Shown piece by piece: positions 3,068-15,547 of a DNA stretch of 15,547 nt. A model generated the notes under the pieces. The model was not told where the DNA came from. It made no database searches and saw only the letters and a program-made list of their open reading frames with translations. Positions within the stretch are counted from its first letter, which is position 1, and every line of letters starts with the position of its first letter. Source of the stretch: a virus (lineage: Duplodnaviria > Heunggongvirae > Uroviricota > Caudoviricetes); the IMG/VR virus record IMGVR_UViG_2648501392_000008. One strand, given 5' to 3'. The translations under genes and the position numbers were made by a program.

Positions 3068-3721
3068 TCAAAAATCCATTATTACTTGTTTGACAAGACC
3101 AACTATTCTGCAGTTCTCACCGCATTCAATAGTTTTATAGTTAGGATTTAGTGGGACGAGATACCTGTTCGGCCAGTCCTCAACAAATTTTTTGAGTGTC
3201 GCTTCTTGCCCACCATTGATATGGGCAACAACGATTTTTCCGTTAATACACTCTGTATCAATAATATCTGGCTCTACGATAACGATAGAACCTTCTGGTA
3301 TCGATGGTGAGCCGAGGGGATTGGTCATTGAATCACCACGGACCCGTAGTGCAAATGCCATTTCTGATACAAGGGCGGTAGTATAAACCCACTCTTCAGC
3401 ATCTTCTTTCCTGACACCAGGCTCCGTCATTGTCCATGAACCCGCCTGAACCCACGAGATTAGGGGGACTTTTTTAACTGCGAATATTTCAGGTTTTAGA
3501 TTTATCTTTGGTTCAGGCGAGCCTTTTCCGCTAACAAGCCACAGAGGATCGCATTTAAGTGCGTTGGCTAGGGCTTGAAGGTTGGCTCCATTTGGTTGGT
3601 AGTCGTCCTTTTCCCATCCAGTAACCGTGACACGGTTCACACCAGTCAAATCAGCCAGTGCTTGTTGTGTCAGGTTCAGTTCTTTTCGCCTTTGGCGAAT
3701 ACGATCACTCATGTTCATCAT
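3068..3721 (-). CDS. cI: cI-like phage repressor (N-terminal XRE-type HTH, C-terminal S24/LexA-type autopeptidase)
   Basis: N-terminus RIRQRRKELNLTQQALADLTGVNRVTVTGWE is a classic HTH; C-terminus has GDSM (catalytic Ser) and a downstream Lys in LexA/S24 arrangement. Divergent from the cro-like gene with operator repeats between them. Confidence 0.85.
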   Translation of the reverse strand: MMNMSDRIRQRRKELNLTQQALADLTGVNRVTVTGWEKDDYQPNGANLQALANALKCDPLWLVSGKGSPEPKINLKPEIFAVKKVPLISWVQAGSWTMTEPGVRKEDAEEWVYTTALVSEMAFALRVRGDSMTNPLGSPSIPEGSIVIVEPDIIDTECINGKIVVAHINGGQEATLKKFVEDWPNRYLVPLNPNYKTIECGENCRIVGLVKQVIMDF

Positions 3722-4041: not shown

Positions 4042-4626
4042 GTGGGTAAAGAACCTGAATGGAAAGTTGATAAACAACCAGCATGGCTGGTGGCAGCAAT
4101 ACGAAGAACGATTGCTGATTTACCTCATGGCTATGAGGAAGCAGCAGAAATTCTTGGTTTGTATAAATCTGATGATATCACCCCAGCAAAAGATCAATTG
4201 CATAACAGACTGCGTAGCGGTGGGGATCAAATTTTTCCACTTGAGTGGGCCATGGTTTTACAGGATGCCAGTGGTACCAGGCATGTAACAGATGCAATAG
4301 CCCGTCGTAGTAATGGGGTGTTTGTGCCGCTGGTGGTCATTGATGACATTGACAATGGTGACATTAATCAGCGGCTGATGGAGTCAATAGAATGGATTGG
4401 CAAGCATTCCCAGTACTTACGCAAGGCAACTGCTGATGGAGTTATTGACCAGGCTGAGCGTGAGCAAATCGAAGAGAACAGCTACCAAGTAATGGCGAAG
4501 TGGCAGGAGCATTTAACACTGTTATTTCGTGTTTTTTGTGCGCCGGAAAAGAGTAACGCCCGCGAGTGTGCAGCTCCGGGCGTCGTGGCGTCGATTGCTT
4601 CTGGTTGTGGAGAAACTAACGCATGA
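4042..4626 (+). CDS. CII-like / YdaT-like prophage regulatory protein
   Basis: GTG start with GAGGA SD 7 nt upstream; position immediately after the Cro/YdaS-like gene; product loosely resembles YdaT / phage-186-CII-type proteins (recalled, not searched). Confidence 0.5.
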   Translation: MGKEPEWKVDKQPAWLVAAIRRTIADLPHGYEEAAEILGLYKSDDITPAKDQLHNRLRSGGDQIFPLEWAMVLQDASGTRHVTDAIARRSNGVFVPLVVIDDIDNGDINQRLMESIEWIGKHSQYLRKATADGVIDQAEREQIEENSYQVMAKWQEHLTLLFRVFCAPEKSNARECAAPGVVASIASGCGETNA

Positions 4627-5783
4627 ATAGTTTAACGGCAAATAACCGTTTGTCGCAACAGCTGGTGGTCAGCGTCGCTGAACACCTGTTGTTACGGCAT
4701 GAATGCAGATTACCAAATCACCTGGCTGTAAGTAACCACAGAGAACTTTACCTGACTGTGGGGGGCGAGTTGTGCAGGAACTTAACCGCTGGTTTCGTGA
4801 CGGAAGAGGGCTTTATGTCCATGTTATTCGTTGGGAGCCAGAAACACAGCGCGTTATCTATCTTCGCAAAGACTACCCGCATGAGTGCTTTAGTCCTTTG
4901 TGGAAATTCAGGCGTGATTTTGTTGAGTGTGAAGGACCACCAGCATATTGATTCTGCAATTCCGGGACGTTACACTGCTCAGGCACCTTATAAAGCGGGT
5001 GCCGGGATTGGCGTCCTGAAATTGTCAACGGCGATGTATGACGCGCCAGCGTCTTTTTTATCGTCCGCATTTGCTCACATCCAGATTATGGTGGGCTGGG
5101 CGGGGGCACCGAAAGGTGCGCCGGTCTCCGTTGACGCCGGTTACGCCAACCCCGTCCAGTTCACCACCAGTGAAATTGGCGTTTCCGGTGGTGGAAGTTT
5201 TTCACTGTCAACGGAGGCTGCCATCATGGCTACGATCCCAGCCCTCACTCAACCTGAAATCACCATTGACAACGGCCAGGCCGTTACCACTTCTTTGGCT
5301 GTTGCCAACTTCTTCTCCAAGCGTCACGACGATGTGCTGAAAAAGATCCGCACTCTGGATTGTTCCCCAGAGTTTTGTGCCCGCAATTTTGCGGAGACAT
5401 CGATTTCGGTAAATCAACCGAACGGTGGTACACGCAAGCTCCCTTGCTATCAAATCACACGAGACGGTTTTGCGTTTCTTGCTATGGGTTTCACGGGTAA
5501 ACGTGCTGCCCGGTTCAAAGAGGCATACATAAATGCCTTTAACCAGATGGAGAAACAGCTTTCAAAGCCCGCTGTACCGAGCGACGTTGCACATAACGCC
5601 AGCGTTCTCTGTTCCTACATTTCATCAATTCATCAGGTCTGGCTGCAGCAGCTTTATCCTATGTTGGCAAAAGCCGAATCTCCGCTGGCTGTTAGCTTAT
5701 ATGACTATATTAATGATGCTTCGGCGCTGGCCAGTCTCATAAATTTGTCGCTGAACCCTTCAGAGGTAAGGGGGCGCAAATGA
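4623..5783 (+). CDS. Rha-domain phage regulatory protein with a roughly 200-aa N-terminal region of unknown function
   Basis: ATGA overlap with the upstream stop. Residues about 210-310 (QAVTTSLAVANFFSKRHDDVLKKIRTL...ITRDGFAFLAMGFTGKRAARFKEAYINAFNQME) match the Rha/pRha domain. An internal ATG at 5226 with GGAGG upstream could also initiate a standalone Rha protein. Confidence 0.55.
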   Translation: MNSLTANNRLSQQLVVSVAEHLLLRHECRLPNHLAVSNHRELYLTVGGELCRNLTAGFVTEEGFMSMLFVGSQKHSALSIFAKTTRMSALVLCGNSGVILLSVKDHQHIDSAIPGRYTAQAPYKAGAGIGVLKLSTAMYDAPASFLSSAFAHIQIMVGWAGAPKGAPVSVDAGYANPVQFTTSEIGVSGGGSFSLSTEAAIMATIPALTQPEITIDNGQAVTTSLAVANFFSKRHDDVLKKIRTLDCSPEFCARNFAETSISVNQPNGGTRKLPCYQITRDGFAFLAMGFTGKRAARFKEAYINAFNQMEKQLSKPAVPSDVAHNASVLCSYISSIHQVWLQQLYPMLAKAESPLAVSLYDYINDASALASLINLSLNPSEVRGRK

Positions 5784-10742: not shown

Positions 10743-10759
10743 TTTTGTGGAGAAAGTTG

Positions 10760-11131
10760 ATGCGTGATATTCAAATGGTTCTTGAACGTTGGGGGGCATG
10801 GGTGGCAAATAATCACGAGGATGTGGAATGGTCATCTGTTGCTGCAGGTTTTAAGGGATTAATTCCTTCGAAAGTAAAATCCCGCCCGCAATGTAGCGAT
10901 GACGATGGCCTGATCATTAGCTCTGCGATGACAGTTCTTAAGAAAAAGGAACCGTATCAATACGAATTACTGGAAATGTATTATGTGTATGGGGTTACAT
11001 TACGGGTGTTGGGGGTAAAACTGGGGATATCACTTAATCAGGTTGTTATCAGACTGCAGAAAGCTGAAGGGTTTATTGACGGTTGTCTGGCAATGTTGGG
11101 GGTATCTTTAGAAATTGATTGTTACATATAG
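10760..11131 (+). CDS. Late-gene antiterminator Q (QuuD/phage-21 type)
   Basis: ATG 10760 with GGAGAAAG SD; the N-terminus MRDIQMVLERWGAWVANNHEDVEWSS matches the recalled N-terminus of DLP12 QuuD. Confidence 0.8.
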   Translation: MRDIQMVLERWGAWVANNHEDVEWSSVAAGFKGLIPSKVKSRPQCSDDDGLIISSAMTVLKKKEPYQYELLEMYYVYGVTLRVLGVKLGISLNQVVIRLQKAEGFIDGCLAMLGVSLEIDCYI

Positions 11132-11168: not shown

Positions 11169-11205
11169 ATAACCTCCTGATGATACCTGTTCATTGGGAG
11201 GTTAT
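11169..11205 (+). promoter_or_regulatory. 9-bp inverted repeat (ataacctcc ... ggaggttat) that would sequester the SD of the downstream 205-aa gene
   Basis: Perfect 9-bp arms at 11169-11177 and 11197-11205 with a 19-nt loop; the right arm contains GGAGG 5 nt before ATG 11207. Confidence 0.35.
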
Positions 11206-11206
11206 T

Positions 11207-11824
11207 ATGGATAAAAATGTAGAGCATGTATTAGTTGATGCAATTGAAAATAAGCAATCTTTAACAGTCGTTTACTTAGGAGGGAGCCAGCCCGGAACAT
11301 TAAGGAATATTTCTCCGATTAGTATAAATGGGGATAAATTGCGGGCAAGATGCCATAGTTCTGGAGCAGTAAAGGTTTTCAATCTTGGGAAAATACAGTT
11401 ACCCAGTGACTCCTGCGCGGTATCTATGCACTATGGAGATTTAGAAGTTAAAGCTTATGAGACGATGCAGAGCGTAAATGACAACTTTCATGCCCTTTAT
11501 CCTGAAGGACGATGGGGTGTTGATTTTAATGAGCATCGCTTTGCTTTATTTGATTTTTTTAAAAACGGGAAACGAAAAAAAACGGCATTTATGGCAATTG
11601 AGTTCAGGGAAAGAGATGAAGAGAAAATAATAACAGGTGTAACAATTGATATTGGTATATCTGGAACAGTGATTTCTGAGAAGTCCCGAATCCCAAAAAG
11701 ACGACCATGGGTAGTGGTTGGTCCCGAACACGGAGAATACAGTACTTATTCAACTTTGGACAAGGCTGCTACAGCGTTTTTTGAGAGGCTTTCGTTGATA
11801 GCATCCGGCCTGGAAGATAATTGA
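11207..11824 (+). CDS. Uncharacterised cargo (moron) protein, 205 aa, with a WYL-like N-terminal region
   Basis: Strong SD (GGGAGG) before ATG 11207; AT-rich codon usage unlike the flanking phage genes; followed by an intrinsic terminator. The N-terminal block SLTVVYLGGSQPGTLRNISPISINGDKLRARCHSSGAVKVFNLGKI fits the WYL-domain pattern by eye. No other domain recognised. Confidence 0.55.
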   Translation: MDKNVEHVLVDAIENKQSLTVVYLGGSQPGTLRNISPISINGDKLRARCHSSGAVKVFNLGKIQLPSDSCAVSMHYGDLEVKAYETMQSVNDNFHALYPEGRWGVDFNEHRFALFDFFKNGKRKKTAFMAIEFRERDEEKIITGVTIDIGISGTVISEKSRIPKRRPWVVVGPEHGEYSTYSTLDKAATAFFERLSLIASGLEDN

Positions 11825-11953
11825 TTTTATGTTTGGTATTCAGAGTTCGCCGTGCTTAAGAAAGTCAAGATTCTAAAAATACTGAATGAGCTACTTGTGT
11901 TATAACAAAAATGCTATTAGTGTGTTAAGAGTGGTTACTTCGCCACACAACTT

Positions 11954-11978
11954 AAACCCGCCACTGAGCGGGTTTTTT
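11954..11978 (+). terminator. Rho-independent terminator after the 205-aa gene
   Basis: aaacccgc-cactga-gcgggttttttg: 5-8 bp GC stem, 6-nt loop, 6-T run. Confidence 0.7.
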
Positions 11979-12076
11979 GTACCTGTAAACTTGGTGCAGT
12001 ACAGTAAACACGCTGGTGGTCGTGAATACTGACTTTTTATCTTGCTGGCTTTTTAGACAAGAGTTATTGGTATGTC

Positions 12077-12298
12077 ATGTTAACCAGAAGGGAAAAAGAC
12101 ATGCTAAAACAGCAAGATATGACCGAAACCGCCAGAGTGGTGTTTAATGAATTGAGCGTCACCGAACCGGCGACAGTCGGGGAGATTGCGCAGAATACTT
12201 ACCTTTCACGCGAACGCTGCCAGTTAATACTGACCCAGCTGGTTATGGCGGGTCTGGCAGACTATCAGTTCGGTTGTTACAGACGCCTTCCGCAGTGA
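12077..12298 (+). CDS. Small putative winged-helix/HTH DNA-binding protein (73 aa; alternative start at 12101)
   Basis: ORF ending inside an intrinsic terminator; ATVGEIAQNTYLSRERCQLILTQLVMAGLADY resembles a wHTH recognition region. Best SD (AGAAGGGA) precedes the ATG at 12101. Confidence 0.45.
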   Translation: MLTRREKDMLKQQDMTETARVVFNELSVTEPATVGEIAQNTYLSRERCQLILTQLVMAGLADYQFGCYRRLPQ

Positions 12299-12308
12299 AG
12301 GCTTTTTT
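12285..12308 (+). terminator. Rho-independent terminator overlapping the stop codon of the small HTH gene
   Basis: gccttc-cgcagt-gaaggc followed by tttttt; the TGA stop lies at the loop/stem junction. Confidence 0.65.
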
Positions 12309-12448: not shown

Positions 12449-13525
12449 ATGCTTAATACTGTAAAAATATCCAGTTGTGAGTTAATCAACGCCGACTGCC
12501 TGGAATTTATCCGGTCGTTACCCGAAAATTCTGTTGACCTGATAGTCACGGACCCGCCGTACTTTAAAGTGAAGCCTGAGGGCTGGGATAACCAGTGGAA
12601 GGGCGACGATGATTACCTGAAGTGGCTGGACCAGTGTCTGGCGCAGTTCTGGCGGGTGCTGAAACCTGCCGGAAGTCTTTACCTGTTCTGTGGTCATCGC
12701 CTGGCATCTGATATCGAAATCATGATGCGTGAACGCTTCAGTGTGCTGAACCATATTATCTGGGCGAAGCCGTCCGGACGCTGGAACGGGTGCAACAAGG
12801 AAAGCCTGCGGGCGTATTTTCCGGCCACAGAACGCATTCTGTTCGCGGAACATTATCAGGGGCCGTATCGTCCGAAAGATGATGGCGATGAGGCGAAGGG
12901 CAGGGCACTGAAACAGCATGTGATGGCCCCGCTGATTTCTTACTTTCGTGATGCGCGTGCTGCTCTTGGGATAACGGCAAAACAGATTGCAGATGCCACA
13001 GGAAAGAAAAACATGGTGTCGCACTGGTTCAGTGCCAGTCAGTGGCAGCTACCGAACGAAAGCGATTATCTGAAATTACAGTCGCTGTTTGCCCGGGTGG
13101 CAGAAGAGAAACATCAGCGGGGAGAACTGGAAAAGTCCCATTACCAACTGGTCAGCACATACAGTGAGCTGAACCGGCAGTATATGGAACTGCTGAGTGA
13201 ATATAAAAATTTGCGGCGGTATTTCGGTGTGACGGTGCAGGTGCCGTACACCGATGTGTGGACGCATAAACCGGTGCAGTACTATCCAGGGAAACATCCG
13301 TGCGAAAAACCGGCAGAAATGCTGCGGCAGATAATCTGCGCGAGCAGTCGTCCGGGTGACCTGGTGGCGGATTTTTTCATGGGTTCTGGCTCAACCATAA
13401 AAGCAGCTATGGCGCTCGGGCGTCGTGCAACTGGTGTTGAACTGGAGGCAGAACGTTTTGCGCAGACCGTTAAGGAGATTAGTCACATCCTTACATGCTC
13501 AATTGATGACGGGAAGGATGGATAA
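12449..13525 (+). CDS. Beta-class N6-adenine/N4-cytosine DNA methyltransferase (YhdJ-like), apparently an orphan
   Basis: SVDLIVTDPPYF (motif IV) at the N-terminus and DLVADFFMGSGSTIKAAMALGRRATGVE (motif I, FxGxG) near the C-terminus, i.e. the beta-class permuted order as in E. coli YhdJ. No restriction endonuclease gene is adjacent. Confidence 0.85.
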   Translation: MLNTVKISSCELINADCLEFIRSLPENSVDLIVTDPPYFKVKPEGWDNQWKGDDDYLKWLDQCLAQFWRVLKPAGSLYLFCGHRLASDIEIMMRERFSVLNHIIWAKPSGRWNGCNKESLRAYFPATERILFAEHYQGPYRPKDDGDEAKGRALKQHVMAPLISYFRDARAALGITAKQIADATGKKNMVSHWFSASQWQLPNESDYLKLQSLFARVAEEKHQRGELEKSHYQLVSTYSELNRQYMELLSEYKNLRRYFGVTVQVPYTDVWTHKPVQYYPGKHPCEKPAEMLRQIICASSRPGDLVADFFMGSGSTIKAAMALGRRATGVELEAERFAQTVKEISHILTCSIDDGKDG

Positions 13526-14744
13526 AGATATGGTCAGTTCAGGCTGTGAAGCAAGTAGACAGATAAGGCTGCAATAAAAACTGACAATAGTAAAATAGCT
13601 TTTTCCCAGGTAGTCATGAATACGATCTCTTAAAGCGCCCGCTGATACCAGCGGGCAATACATACTGGCATTAATGTTAAGTTCAGGGATAATTCATCGT
13701 ATTTTGTGGTACGACGCTATCAATATTAATAAACAGTATTTTTCATGTAAAATTTCTGTTTTTTTGATCTGATTCTCGTTTCCTGGGTTATGATGTTGTT
13801 GTGAACCATGCTGTTGAATGATAATGTTCGGGTATAAAATTGTTGCTGATATGTAGCGCAGTGAGCGGGTGGTATTTCTGTTGCTGAGTGTACGGATACA
13901 GTGCTTCCCTCCCTCAGCGGGGGGCAGGTGTGCTGTGGTTTTAGAGACACCGGAAACGAGAATGATGCGGGTTTGCTGGTGCCGGGATAGAGTCGCCGGA
14001 GGTCATGACATAGAGCAAAAAAGGAATGTGCATGCAAATACACACCTCTTCGGAGAGCTCTTCTTTATATGGATGAGCCTCAAGGTCAATAGTTTATCTG
14101 TTATGTATTCATATGTTGTTACTTATATAATCCATACGGGCATATCATCAGTACACACATACTATTATGGCATTTTATTTTTGTTTTAACTGAATTCCCG
14201 GGGCACTCTTTTTGATTTCTGATAAGGAACCAGAATTTTCTGTTAAATGGTGTCACGTTGTAAATGGTTAATGGAAGCAGCTTATTATCCATAATCACAC
14301 CTGAGTTAACAGGTGTGAGAATACTTCCGGGTGGCAGGAACACATCTGACTGATACCAGATTATCAACTTTATTTTACACCATACAGTTGAAAACGTTAT
14401 TCCGCTTGATGGGCATATCACTGTGTCAATAACTATCCATTCCATCTTTTAACCTTCTCGGTACACATTGCTTTCGATTGTTTTGCTAAAAATCATAGTC
14501 AATAAATCAGTGTAACTCATTGATAAAGATCGTTTTCTTTGTCTTCCTGGGGTTTTCTTTTCTAATTTTGTATCACTTTGGTTCAAGTTGTTTCATTTTT
14601 TGTAATACAAATTAGCAGGATGAGCGGGAATATAAAAAAATCGGATGTTTTTGTAATGGATATTATTTTTTGTAAAATAATGTATTTTTATTTAAATCTC
14701 TATCAGAAAAGAATTTATTGTTCCTTTATATGGTGGAAAAGGTC

Positions 14745-15547
14745 ATGGTATTTAAACACTACGATGTGGTCAGGGCGGCGTCGCCGTCAGACCTTGCGGA
14801 AAAGCTGACACACAAACTGAAAGAGGGCTGGCAGCCATATGGCGGACCGGTTGCCATTACGCCGTACACACTGATGCAGGCGGTGGCTATTGAAGGAGAG
14901 CCACAGGTCGGCCCTTCATCTGAGCCGGACTGGTTCTACGTGGTTGTGCTTGCCGGACAGTCCAACGGCATGGCCTACGGTGAAGGGCTTCCGTTACCGG
15001 ATTCTTACGATGCTCCGGATCCGCGCATTAAACAGCTGGCGCGCCGCAGCACGGTAACTCCGGGTGGAGAGAGTTGTACGTATAACGACATCATCCCGGC
15101 TGACCACTGCCTGCATGATGTGCAGGATATGAGTACGCTGAATCATCCGAAGGCAGACCTGAGCAAAGGGCAGTACGGCTGTGTCGGCCAGGGCTTACAT
15201 ATTGCCAAAAAACTGCTTCCGTATATCCCGAATAACGCGGGGATCCTGCTGGTACCATGCTGTCGTGGTGGTTCGGCATTCACCCAGGGCGCGGAGGGGA
15301 CATTCAGTGCGGACACGGGGGCCAGCCAGGATTCGGCACGCTGGGGTGTGGGTAAACCGTTATATCAGGACCTGATTGCGCGCACTAAAGCTGCATTACA
15401 GAAGAACCCGAAAAATGTGTTGCTGGCGGTGTGCTGGATGCAGGGAGAGTTTGACATGAGCGCCGCCACCCACGCACAGCAACCTGCGCTGTTTACAGCC
15501 ATGCTGACACAGTTTCGTGCTGACCTCTCCGTGTTTAACGCGCAGTG
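14745..15547 (+). CDS. nanS: Prophage sialate O-acetylesterase NanS-p-like protein (DUF1737 N-terminus plus SASA/SGNH esterase), 5' part only; continues beyond the window end
   Basis: Translated by hand from ATG 14745: MVFKHYDVVRAASPSDLAEKLTHKLKEGWQPYGGPVAIT...WFYVVVLAGQSNGMAYGEGLPLPDSYD... contains the GQSN esterase motif and the NanS/YjhS-like context seen downstream of stx in Stx phages. Not in the ORF track because there is no stop inside the window. Confidence 0.75.
   Translation, partial: MVFKHYDVVRAASPSDLAEKLTHKLKEGWQPYGGPVAITPYTLMQAVAIEGEPQVGPSSEPDWFYVVVLAGQSNGMAYGEGLPLPDSYDAPDPRIKQLARRSTVTPGGESCTYNDIIPADHCLHDVQDMSTLNHPKADLSKGQYGCVGQGLHIAKKLLPYIPNNAGILLVPCCRGGSAFTQGAEGTFSADTGASQDSARWGVGKPLYQDLIARTKAALQKNPKNVLLAVCWMQGEFDMSAATHAQQPALFTAMLTQFRADLSVFNAQ

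Follow-up and report, generated by a model that had tools for sequence, protein, structure and literature searches.

An intact iraM-family gene beside a probable STnc100 relic in the cargo slot of a lambdoid Escherichia coli prophage

Our analysis concerns a 15,547-nucleotide stretch of viral DNA (IMG/VR record IMGVR_UViG_2648501392_000008, hereafter the window), which spans the regulatory region, from early to late, of a lambdoid Escherichia coli prophage, and in particular the interval between a DNA methyltransferase (methylase) gene and nanS-p. This interval (13526-14744, from the methylase stop codon to the nanS-p ATG) had been described in an original prediction as an AT-rich stretch of about 1.2 kb with no convincing open reading frame (ORF). 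We find that it carries, at 14119..14445 on the minus strand, an ORF whose sequence identifies it as an intact gene of the iraM/iraL family of RssB anti-adaptors under purifying selection. With a probability of roughly 85%, the interval is a cargo (moron) slot of a lambdoid prophage in which this gene lies beside a decayed relic of an STnc100-family small RNA (sRNA) gene. The main occupant would be a self-contained minus-strand unit of promoter, Shine-Dalgarno sequence, 108-codon ORF and terminator; the STnc100 relic would be convergent with it, and the tRNA genes found between a leader and STnc100 in sister prophages would have been lost here.

The identity of the iraM-family gene is supported by several independent comparisons. 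Its 108-amino-acid product corresponds to RefSeq WP_001443281.1, and RefSeq names exactly this ORF iraM in the listed complete E. coli carrier genomes, at 99-100% identity. The protein scores 144.2 bits against the NCBIfam model NF007393 (PRK09919; cutoff 121), residues 1-107 aligning to positions 1-110 of the 114 in the model, and matches PHROG 4407 at 3.3e-55. Moreover, a phmmer search of the PDB aligned its residues 1-77 to the crystallised core of IraM, which comprises residues 1-78 and has a PmrD-like fold (8twd_A, E = 2e-29), a homology known here from sequence. No ORF in 13526-14744 has a match in Pfam, which for the iraM ORF is explained by the lack of a Pfam model for the family. The closest of the homologues compared is that of STEC299 (83% identity), followed by a Stx2c-phage homologue (62%), an ST131 prophage protein (61%) and IraM of E. 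coli K-12 (54%). We take the ST131 protein to be IraL-type because 66 of its residues are identical to IraM, and 66/112 equals the published IraL-IraM identity of 58.9% (PMC4045071).

The pattern of variation likewise argues for a maintained gene. Pairwise dN/dS values against relatives are 0.09-0.20, and across five lineages 46 alignment columns are invariant, including four cysteines in the C-terminal part. Among 19 near relatives spanning several serogroups, the 327 coding sites are free of variation and of indels, whereas the flanking non-coding DNA of the same relatives shows 1.7-2.7% variable sites, homopolymer indels and a 59-bp deletion. A Shine-Dalgarno sequence, GAAGG (14457-14453, minus strand), lies 7 nt before the ATG. 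The view that the ORFs of the interval have a junk-like composition and lack Shine-Dalgarno sequences thus does not hold for 14119..14445, a full-length IraM-family gene, and neither does that of a gene-free stretch of 1.2 kb: the gene fills 327 of the 1219 bp and leaves a non-coding remainder of 593 bp (13526-14118) plus 299 bp. The original prediction had itself named a conserved protein-coding gene as the observation that would speak against it; an iraM-family ORF of this kind is present by its sequence, and by that standard the claim of no ORF fails.

The position of the interval fits that of known cargo. In carrier genomes with identical loci, the holin and lysis genes come after nanS-p, which places the interval between them and the Q antiterminator gene (10745-11131; Pfam Phage_antitermQ, 1.5e-47), and the region between Q and the lysis genes has been described as an insertion site for morons (PMC4104026). 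Morons have been defined as autonomous units that bring a promoter and a terminator of their own and are inserted in the late region, beyond Q and PR' (Juhala et al. 2000, cited in PMC4104026). Here the position agrees with this definition, the predicted terminator consists of a hairpin and a T6 run, and the promoter comes from homology to iraL alone. During lytic growth, Q-modified transcription from upstream would, judging from the gene order, read through the interval antisense to iraM.

Furthermore, the arrangement is widespread. Relatives of the window iraM protein are encoded on 279 IMG/VR viral contigs, and about 100 loci were fetched for a comparison of carrier prophages. Where at least 700 bp of upstream flank was present, nanS-p starts divergently 217-330 bp upstream of iraM in 60 of 63 loci; downstream of iraM, 34 of 66 loci have a methylase gene and five have stxA. 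The divergent iraM/nanS-p pair also occurs in Stx2c phages and a Stx2c prophage, in the ST131 prophage and in STEC299. Across carriers, the locus frame consists of methylase or Q, leader, tRNA genes (sometimes stx), STnc100 (+), an iraM-family gene (-) and divergent nanS-p (+). The minus-strand position facing STnc100 is taken by an iraM-family gene in the window and in seven of nine Rfam-scanned relatives; the other two have lost iraM. Four sister prophages (L008, L009, L010 and L011) carry the methylase leader, tRNA genes and STnc100 with no iraM-family gene before nanS-p. Gains or losses of the gene thus occur among close relatives, and L008 still has a small pseudogene call where it would lie. 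A search of 5426 complete genomes found the interval itself at 99% identity or more in 28, including O121, O111 and O103 strains, and at 100% on the chromosomes of two E. coli strains, O39:NM F8704-2 and E110019.

The second element of the slot, at 13881..14071 on the plus strand and convergent with iraM, came to light through the 3' flanks of iraM homologues, which revealed an STnc100 terminator and body. All nine relatives tested carry a full STnc100 gene at the same position (Rfam 83-158 bits) together with tRNA genes; eight of these nine copies are also among the nine comparison sequences of a pairwise STnc100 alignment. In a permissive pairwise alignment the window segment is collinear with positions 2-209 of the 210-nt STnc100 of one relative (L053), with 137 of 175 aligned columns identical. 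Scores of the forward strand of 13782-14040, from which the terminator part is excluded, against 32 STnc100 genes average 38.2 +/- 10.9, compared with 21-25 for four sequence controls (reverse-complement, reversed, complement and the like) and two neighbouring segments. We therefore consider 13881-14071 best read as a strongly decayed STnc100-family gene, an assignment made by homology.

A working but divergent STnc100-like sRNA gene at this site, rather than a relic, is unlikely. It would account for the full-length collinearity, for the blocks that are kept, including GCGGGTTTG and a C-run/G-run hairpin, and for the retained canonical position and orientation. However, no STnc100 (RF02076, gathering score 47 bits) was found at E <= 10 in Rfam searches with 1451-nt and 226-nt segments, the listed matches of which went as low as about 12 bits, and an nhmmer profile built from the 32 STnc100 genes finds nothing in the interval. 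The segment also folds no better than its shuffled versions (z = +0.39, against -3.0 +/- 0.8 for the 32 bona fide copies), and, as read from the alignment, it has lost the CCGGG/CCCGG helix while the 7-bp GC stem of the terminator is down to about 4 bp. Moreover, the length of the poly-G run at 13913-13918 differs among relatives, and two of them have lost 59 bp (13865-13923). The suggestion of a decayed cargo or sRNA locus is thus borne out for the relic at 13881-14071 and not for the interval as a whole.

The tRNA genes that accompany STnc100 elsewhere are absent. ARAGORN and Rfam detect none in the window, and a local alignment of 13782-14044 with the corresponding segments of six relatives, under stringent scoring, gave no excess over shuffled sequences for remnants of tRNA, stx or sRNA genes. 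In every fetched prophage with the leader described below, tRNA genes are found about 250 bp beyond it, and their loss in this lineage, rather than a gain elsewhere, is the most parsimonious account. The idea of former cargo therefore finds agreement in the absence here of the tRNA genes of the sister prophages, and no tRNA or stx remnant was detected. Beyond this, Rfam matches nothing in the interval at the gathering score and gives weak chance matches of hairpin type at E <= 10. We also rejected an origin of 13782-14044 from outside this lineage of prophages. The segment has no match among INPHARED phage records; a scan for exact 20-mers gave 17 near-identical contigs of E. coli prophages in IMG/VR and, in species-representative genomes, one match in an unrelated Cyclobacteriaceae metagenome-assembled genome, presumably by chance. 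As an observation on annotation, RefSeq carries partial 'hypothetical protein' pseudogenes over the STnc100 genes of two relatives (L006, 2185-2310, and L008, 3907-4035; Rfam 132 and 141 bits), which are probably artefacts.

The signals around the iraM-family gene are consistent with expression from its own promoter in the lysogen. A putative -10 box, TATGAT (14497-14492, minus strand), was placed by alignment to the upstream regions of homologues, where it corresponds to TATACT in STEC299, TATACT in the ST131 IraL-type sequence and TATAAT in the Stx2c-phage homologue. In the IraL-type sequence the aligned hexamer ends 7 nt before a start site located 33 nt upstream of the ATG. This position fits the '-100 to +33' fragment described for the iraL promoter (PMC4045071), and the corresponding start site of the window gene is putative. 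At the other end of the unit, a minimum free energy (MFE) fold of the minus strand predicts an intrinsic terminator, GGUGUGUAUUUGCAUGCACAUUCC followed by UUUUUU (14017..14046), which begins 73 nt after the stop codon and whose T-run was read from the sequence. Homology to the STEC299 iraM module begins at 14045.

Regulation of the window gene probably differs from that of iraM in K-12. Homology to K-12 iraM stops at the coding sequence, the upstream regions being unrelated, and a search for the PhoP box KGTTTANNNNNKGTTTA with up to two mismatches found no match in 13526-14744. Bougdour et al. reportedly found in 2008 that the K-12 iraM promoter depends on PhoP/PhoQ and responds to low Mg2+. 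The end of the K-12 homology at the coding sequence and the missing PhoP box suggest a different, PhoP-independent regulation of the window gene.

GC content is 0.281 in 14446..14744, where iraM and nanS-p diverge, compared with 0.371 in the interval and 0.478 in the whole window, so that the AT-richness that had been noted is confirmed. The region from which the two genes diverge presumably holds the promoters of both. It contains three copies of TTTTTGTAA within 80 bp (at 14597, 14648 and 14667), a repetition that had been pointed out upstream of nanS-p and that lies far above expectation: shuffling the whole window 200 times gave a mean of 0.27 copies and never as many as three. The repeats overlap promoter-like hexamers on both strands, found by a sequence scan (TTGTAA-16-TAAAAT, 14651-14678, plus strand; ATTACA-17-TATATT, 14657-14629, minus strand), and are not conserved in STEC299. 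Poly-T and poly-A tracts in this region vary, with indels in relatives at 14596-14601 (T6), 14634-14640 (A7) and 14666-14671 (T6); the T-run in the spacer of the plus-strand promoter-like sequence, upstream of nanS-p, has one additional T in most relatives and four in one. Such differences in tract length, also at the G6 run 13913-13918, occur among prophages that are otherwise 98-100% identical.

The conserved residues of the protein are compatible with RssB as its target. IraM binds RssB, occludes its 4-5-5 face and stops the delivery of RpoS to ClpXP (PMC10844676), and IraL acts likewise in log phase through RssB's N-terminal domain only (PMC4045071). We mapped the three clusters of RssB-contacting residues listed in PMC10844676 onto the window protein by alignment to IraM. 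All five residues of cluster I, which contact RssB's N-terminal domain, are identical (I4, I6, W22, K26 and I42), as are F18, W30, I61, Y62 and P66. Five substitutions relative to IraM (T13S, C14S, L75I, H63N and I64V) fall in the clusters that contact the C-terminal domain and the linker of RssB, and all but C14S are common to the ST131 IraL-type protein. Binding of RssB by the window protein would perhaps be IraL-like, with contacts to the N-terminal domain only. Taken together, we infer that the protein is an RssB anti-adaptor which would bind RssB, block the delivery of RpoS and thereby raise the RpoS level in the lysogen.

Several points weigh against this account of the interval. Identity of the window protein to IraM and to the IraL-type protein is modest (54% and 61%), in cluster II, which contacts the C-terminal domain of RssB, two of five residues are identical to IraM and three are conservative changes, and in cluster III two of four are identical; the mode of binding may thus differ from that of IraM. 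The promoter was assigned solely by alignment to the upstream region of iraL, and neither a promoter scan nor the alignment found a good -35 box upstream of iraM. The AT-rich gene and its upstream region could be silenced by H-NS. With regard to the relic, the STnc100 homology comes from a permissive pairwise alignment and neither profile method detects it, and the choice between loss and gain of tRNA genes was made by parsimony alone.

Some of these points would also fit an iraM-family gene that, though intact, stays silent in the lysogen or does not function there, for example through H-NS silencing or as an incipient pseudogene. The GC content of the gene (36%) and of its upstream region (28%), the lack of a canonical -35 box and the variable poly-T and poly-A lengths upstream are in line with such a gene. 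We nevertheless regard it as quite unlikely, as the ORF is under purifying selection and identical in 19 relatives of several serogroups. Moreover, the homologous iraL, which occupies a genomic position of the same type, has a promoter of its own that drives its expression in log phase, and it stabilises RpoS (PMC4045071).

At the other end of the interval, the methylase gene is followed by a non-coding leader (13526..13781, plus strand) that is shared with about 13 other E. coli prophages at 77-85% identity. Within it lies the hairpin gcccgctg-atac-cagcgggc (13637-13656), which had been reported and is present. The hairpin is surrounded by a 56-nt block (13630..13685) with a single variable position (a/g) in an alignment of six sequences, the flanks of which are about 15-25% diverged, and with no variable site among the 19 near relatives. 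A canonical U-tail beside the hairpin is absent on either strand, and no Rfam family matches the block, also at permissive thresholds. The block sits at a mosaic junction, beside which three relatives (L008, L024 and L027) change alignment partner. The block is a candidate for an element that marks a module boundary or resembles a terminator, or for the body of a short RNA from the minus strand.

In the latter case the block would form the body of a minus-strand sRNA of about 58 nt ending at the hairpin, analogous to AsxR and AgvB, prophage anti-sRNAs of 51-60 nt that occur in the moron region (PMC4104026). Besides this location, the near-invariance of the block between diverging flanks and a promoter-like TTGATA-16-TACGAT (13723-13696, minus strand), which would start a transcript near 13689, speak for such an RNA. 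It is very unlikely all the same: the tail after the hairpin is only GCUUU(U)AAG, the -35 box lacks conservation and one relative has a damaged -10 box, AsxR and AgvB are missing from the Rfam matches even at permissive thresholds, the invariant hairpin offers no covariation, and the mosaic-junction position could account for conservation at the DNA level.

Next to the leader, a 44-nt stretch that is GU-rich on the plus strand (13783..13826) is lineage-specific and appears as a gap in aligned relatives. Its plus strand resembles the R1 seed of GcvB (GGUUAUGAUGUUGU, 13 of 14 positions identical), and its minus strand carries CACAACA and could pair with 14 nt of R1. The duplex energy of -25.1 kcal/mol ranks 14th of the 10,346 windows tested within our stretch. 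A GcvB decoy or mimic at 13786-13813 was rejected as not significant: several sites, mostly inside the longest ORFs, were equal or better. Folding z-scores gave no indication of a structured RNA in 13840-14118 or 13620-13840 (-0.22, +0.25 and -1.62). That the interval holds either a block-encoded anti-sRNA-class RNA of about 58 nt on the minus strand or, separately, a GcvB decoy in the 44-nt insertion is thus highly doubtful; if true, each of the two would bring the moron slot a new regulatory RNA in addition to the iraM-family gene.

The remaining features that had been listed for the interval are present and take on a different meaning. The inverted repeat at 14295-14318, with perfect arms of 9 bp and a 6-nt spacer, is part of the iraM coding sequence, where it falls in codons 43-51 (LTPVNSGVI). 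We rejected it as a separate operator or terminator, as it is not conserved: nine of nine arm positions are complementary here, compared with eight, six, six and three of nine in homologues. The repeat is a by-product of coding. All four listed ORFs were found where they had been placed. Three of them, 13726..14043 (-), 13869..14189 (+) and 14578..14808 (+), were rejected as genes, having no significant Pfam or NCBIfam match, as were the ORFs 13499..13663 (-) and 14449..14586 (-). Two, 13726..14043 (-) and 13869..14189 (+), overlap the poly-G run, and poly-G indels and the 59-bp deletion in relatives disrupt their frames. The judgement that the listed ORFs are spurious is therefore correct for three of the four and wrong for 14119..14445 (-). 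A wholly non-coding interval, that is, decayed cargo or a long nanS-p 5' untranslated region (UTR) with spurious ORFs, would suit the AT-rich DNA, the empty Pfam result and these three ORFs, but is practically untenable and, as far as sequence can tell, refuted for 14119-14445, which passes the IraM model, matches 8TWD, has a dN/dS of 0.1-0.2 and is invariant and indel-free unlike its flanks, while the region upstream of nanS-p aligns between lineages in short blocks alone and not as one conserved UTR.

Returning to the iraM-family cargo slot, three known systems come closest to it. IraM of E. coli K-12 (YcgW/ElbA; 8TWD) belongs to the same family and is of similar length (107 aa, compared with 108 in the window), and it shares the five residues that contact RssB's N-terminal domain and the four C-terminal-part cysteines. 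Apart from its lower identity, the five substitutions, the unrelated upstream region and the missing PhoP box, the window gene differs in its location, K-12 iraM being next to icd at the e14 site. The second system, IraL of uropathogenic CFT073, is an IraM homologue on horizontally acquired DNA (PMC4045071); our comparison was made with the inferred IraL-type protein of the ST131 prophage. That prophage has methylase, tRNA genes, STnc100, iraL (-) and nanS-p (+), and the window shares this slot. Moreover, the -10 hexamers align, the contacts to the N-terminal domain are kept, and H63N, I64V, L75I and T13S are shared. Besides the 61% identity, the differences are that the intergenic region is weakly alignable and 40 bp longer in the window, and that STnc100 is intact in the ST131 prophage and decayed in the window.

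The third system is the convergent pair of STnc100 (EcOnc27) with AsxR or AgvB, which Stx and other lambdoid prophages carry at their moron site and whose slot resembles ours in being cargo downstream of PR' up to the position of nanS-p. In prophage Sp5 of strain Sakai, Tree et al. described STnc100 (+) facing AsxR (-) between stx2B and nanS-p (PMC4104026). We recovered the same arrangement, with AsxR scoring 88 bits as a positive control. The window has no match to AsxR (RF02703, a conserved 3' region of about 42 nt plus terminator) or to AgvB, at the gathering score or at E <= 10. In contrast to the known pair, the minus-strand partner in the window, as in many other lineages, codes for an anti-adaptor and not for an anti-sRNA of 51-60 nt, and the STnc100 copy of the window fails the family model.

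Several further features of the window concern its borders and the surrounding regulatory region. To the left of the interval lies an N6/N4 DNA methyltransferase gene (12449..13525, plus strand; Pfam PF01555, 1.1e-42; 'DNA-methyltransferase' in RefSeq), and to the right the 5' part of nanS-p (14745..15547, plus strand), with its ATG at 14745, DUF1737 and SASA esterase domains (Pfam PF08410 and PF03629) and the RefSeq annotation 'SASA family carbohydrate esterase'. When 14850-15547 was compared with the near-identical relatives L015-L031, they diverged sharply; 25% of the sites in 14745-14900 are variable, compared with 0-2.7% upstream, and this divergence indicates a recombination breakpoint inside nanS-p. 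Between the Q and methylase genes, a 33-41% GC segment carries a 214-amino-acid ORF (11180-11824, plus strand), for which Pfam gives no family and the match is to PHROG 8498 (unknown function, 3.4e-126). In F8704-2 and E110019, whose iraM loci are 100% identical, a DUF1133 gene stands in its place, which makes this another exchangeable cargo position. Downstream of Q, a hairpin followed by a T-run (aaacccgc-cactga-gcgggtttttt, 11940-11980, plus strand) was read by eye and is absent from the scan listing. A second, terminator-like hairpin, GCCTTC-CGCAGT-GAAGGC followed by TTTTTT (12285-12302, plus strand), lies at the end of a 73-amino-acid ORF (12077-12298, PHROG 331). The two hairpins could serve as tR'-type terminators for the late promoter. 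In the early part of the window, which also encodes a CI-like repressor (3068-3721, minus strand), Rfam matches above the gathering score identify isrK (4983-5059, 62 bits) and C4 antisense RNA (5084-5171, 81 bits) on the plus strand, within or adjoining an ORF with Ash and Rha domains (4623-5783). The segment 4983-5171 thus resembles, in a lambdoid prophage, the c4/antirepressor immunity element of the P1/P7 type.

Overall, the locus combines a missed gene that was already annotated with the ordinary decay of a cargo slot; the gene is known, as are its family and mechanism, and RefSeq already gives this very protein the name iraM. The correction of the false 'no gene' call shows that AT-rich small ORFs rich in cysteine and isoleucine, lying opposite a phage late operon, can be real cargo. 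A literature search found no paper linking iraM with nanS-p or stating that the slot is shared, and we regard the shared slot as a modest comparative observation on known parts and not as a new system. Lambdoid prophages seem to place different devices for reprogramming global regulators of the host, AsxR in one case and iraM in the other, at the position facing STnc100.

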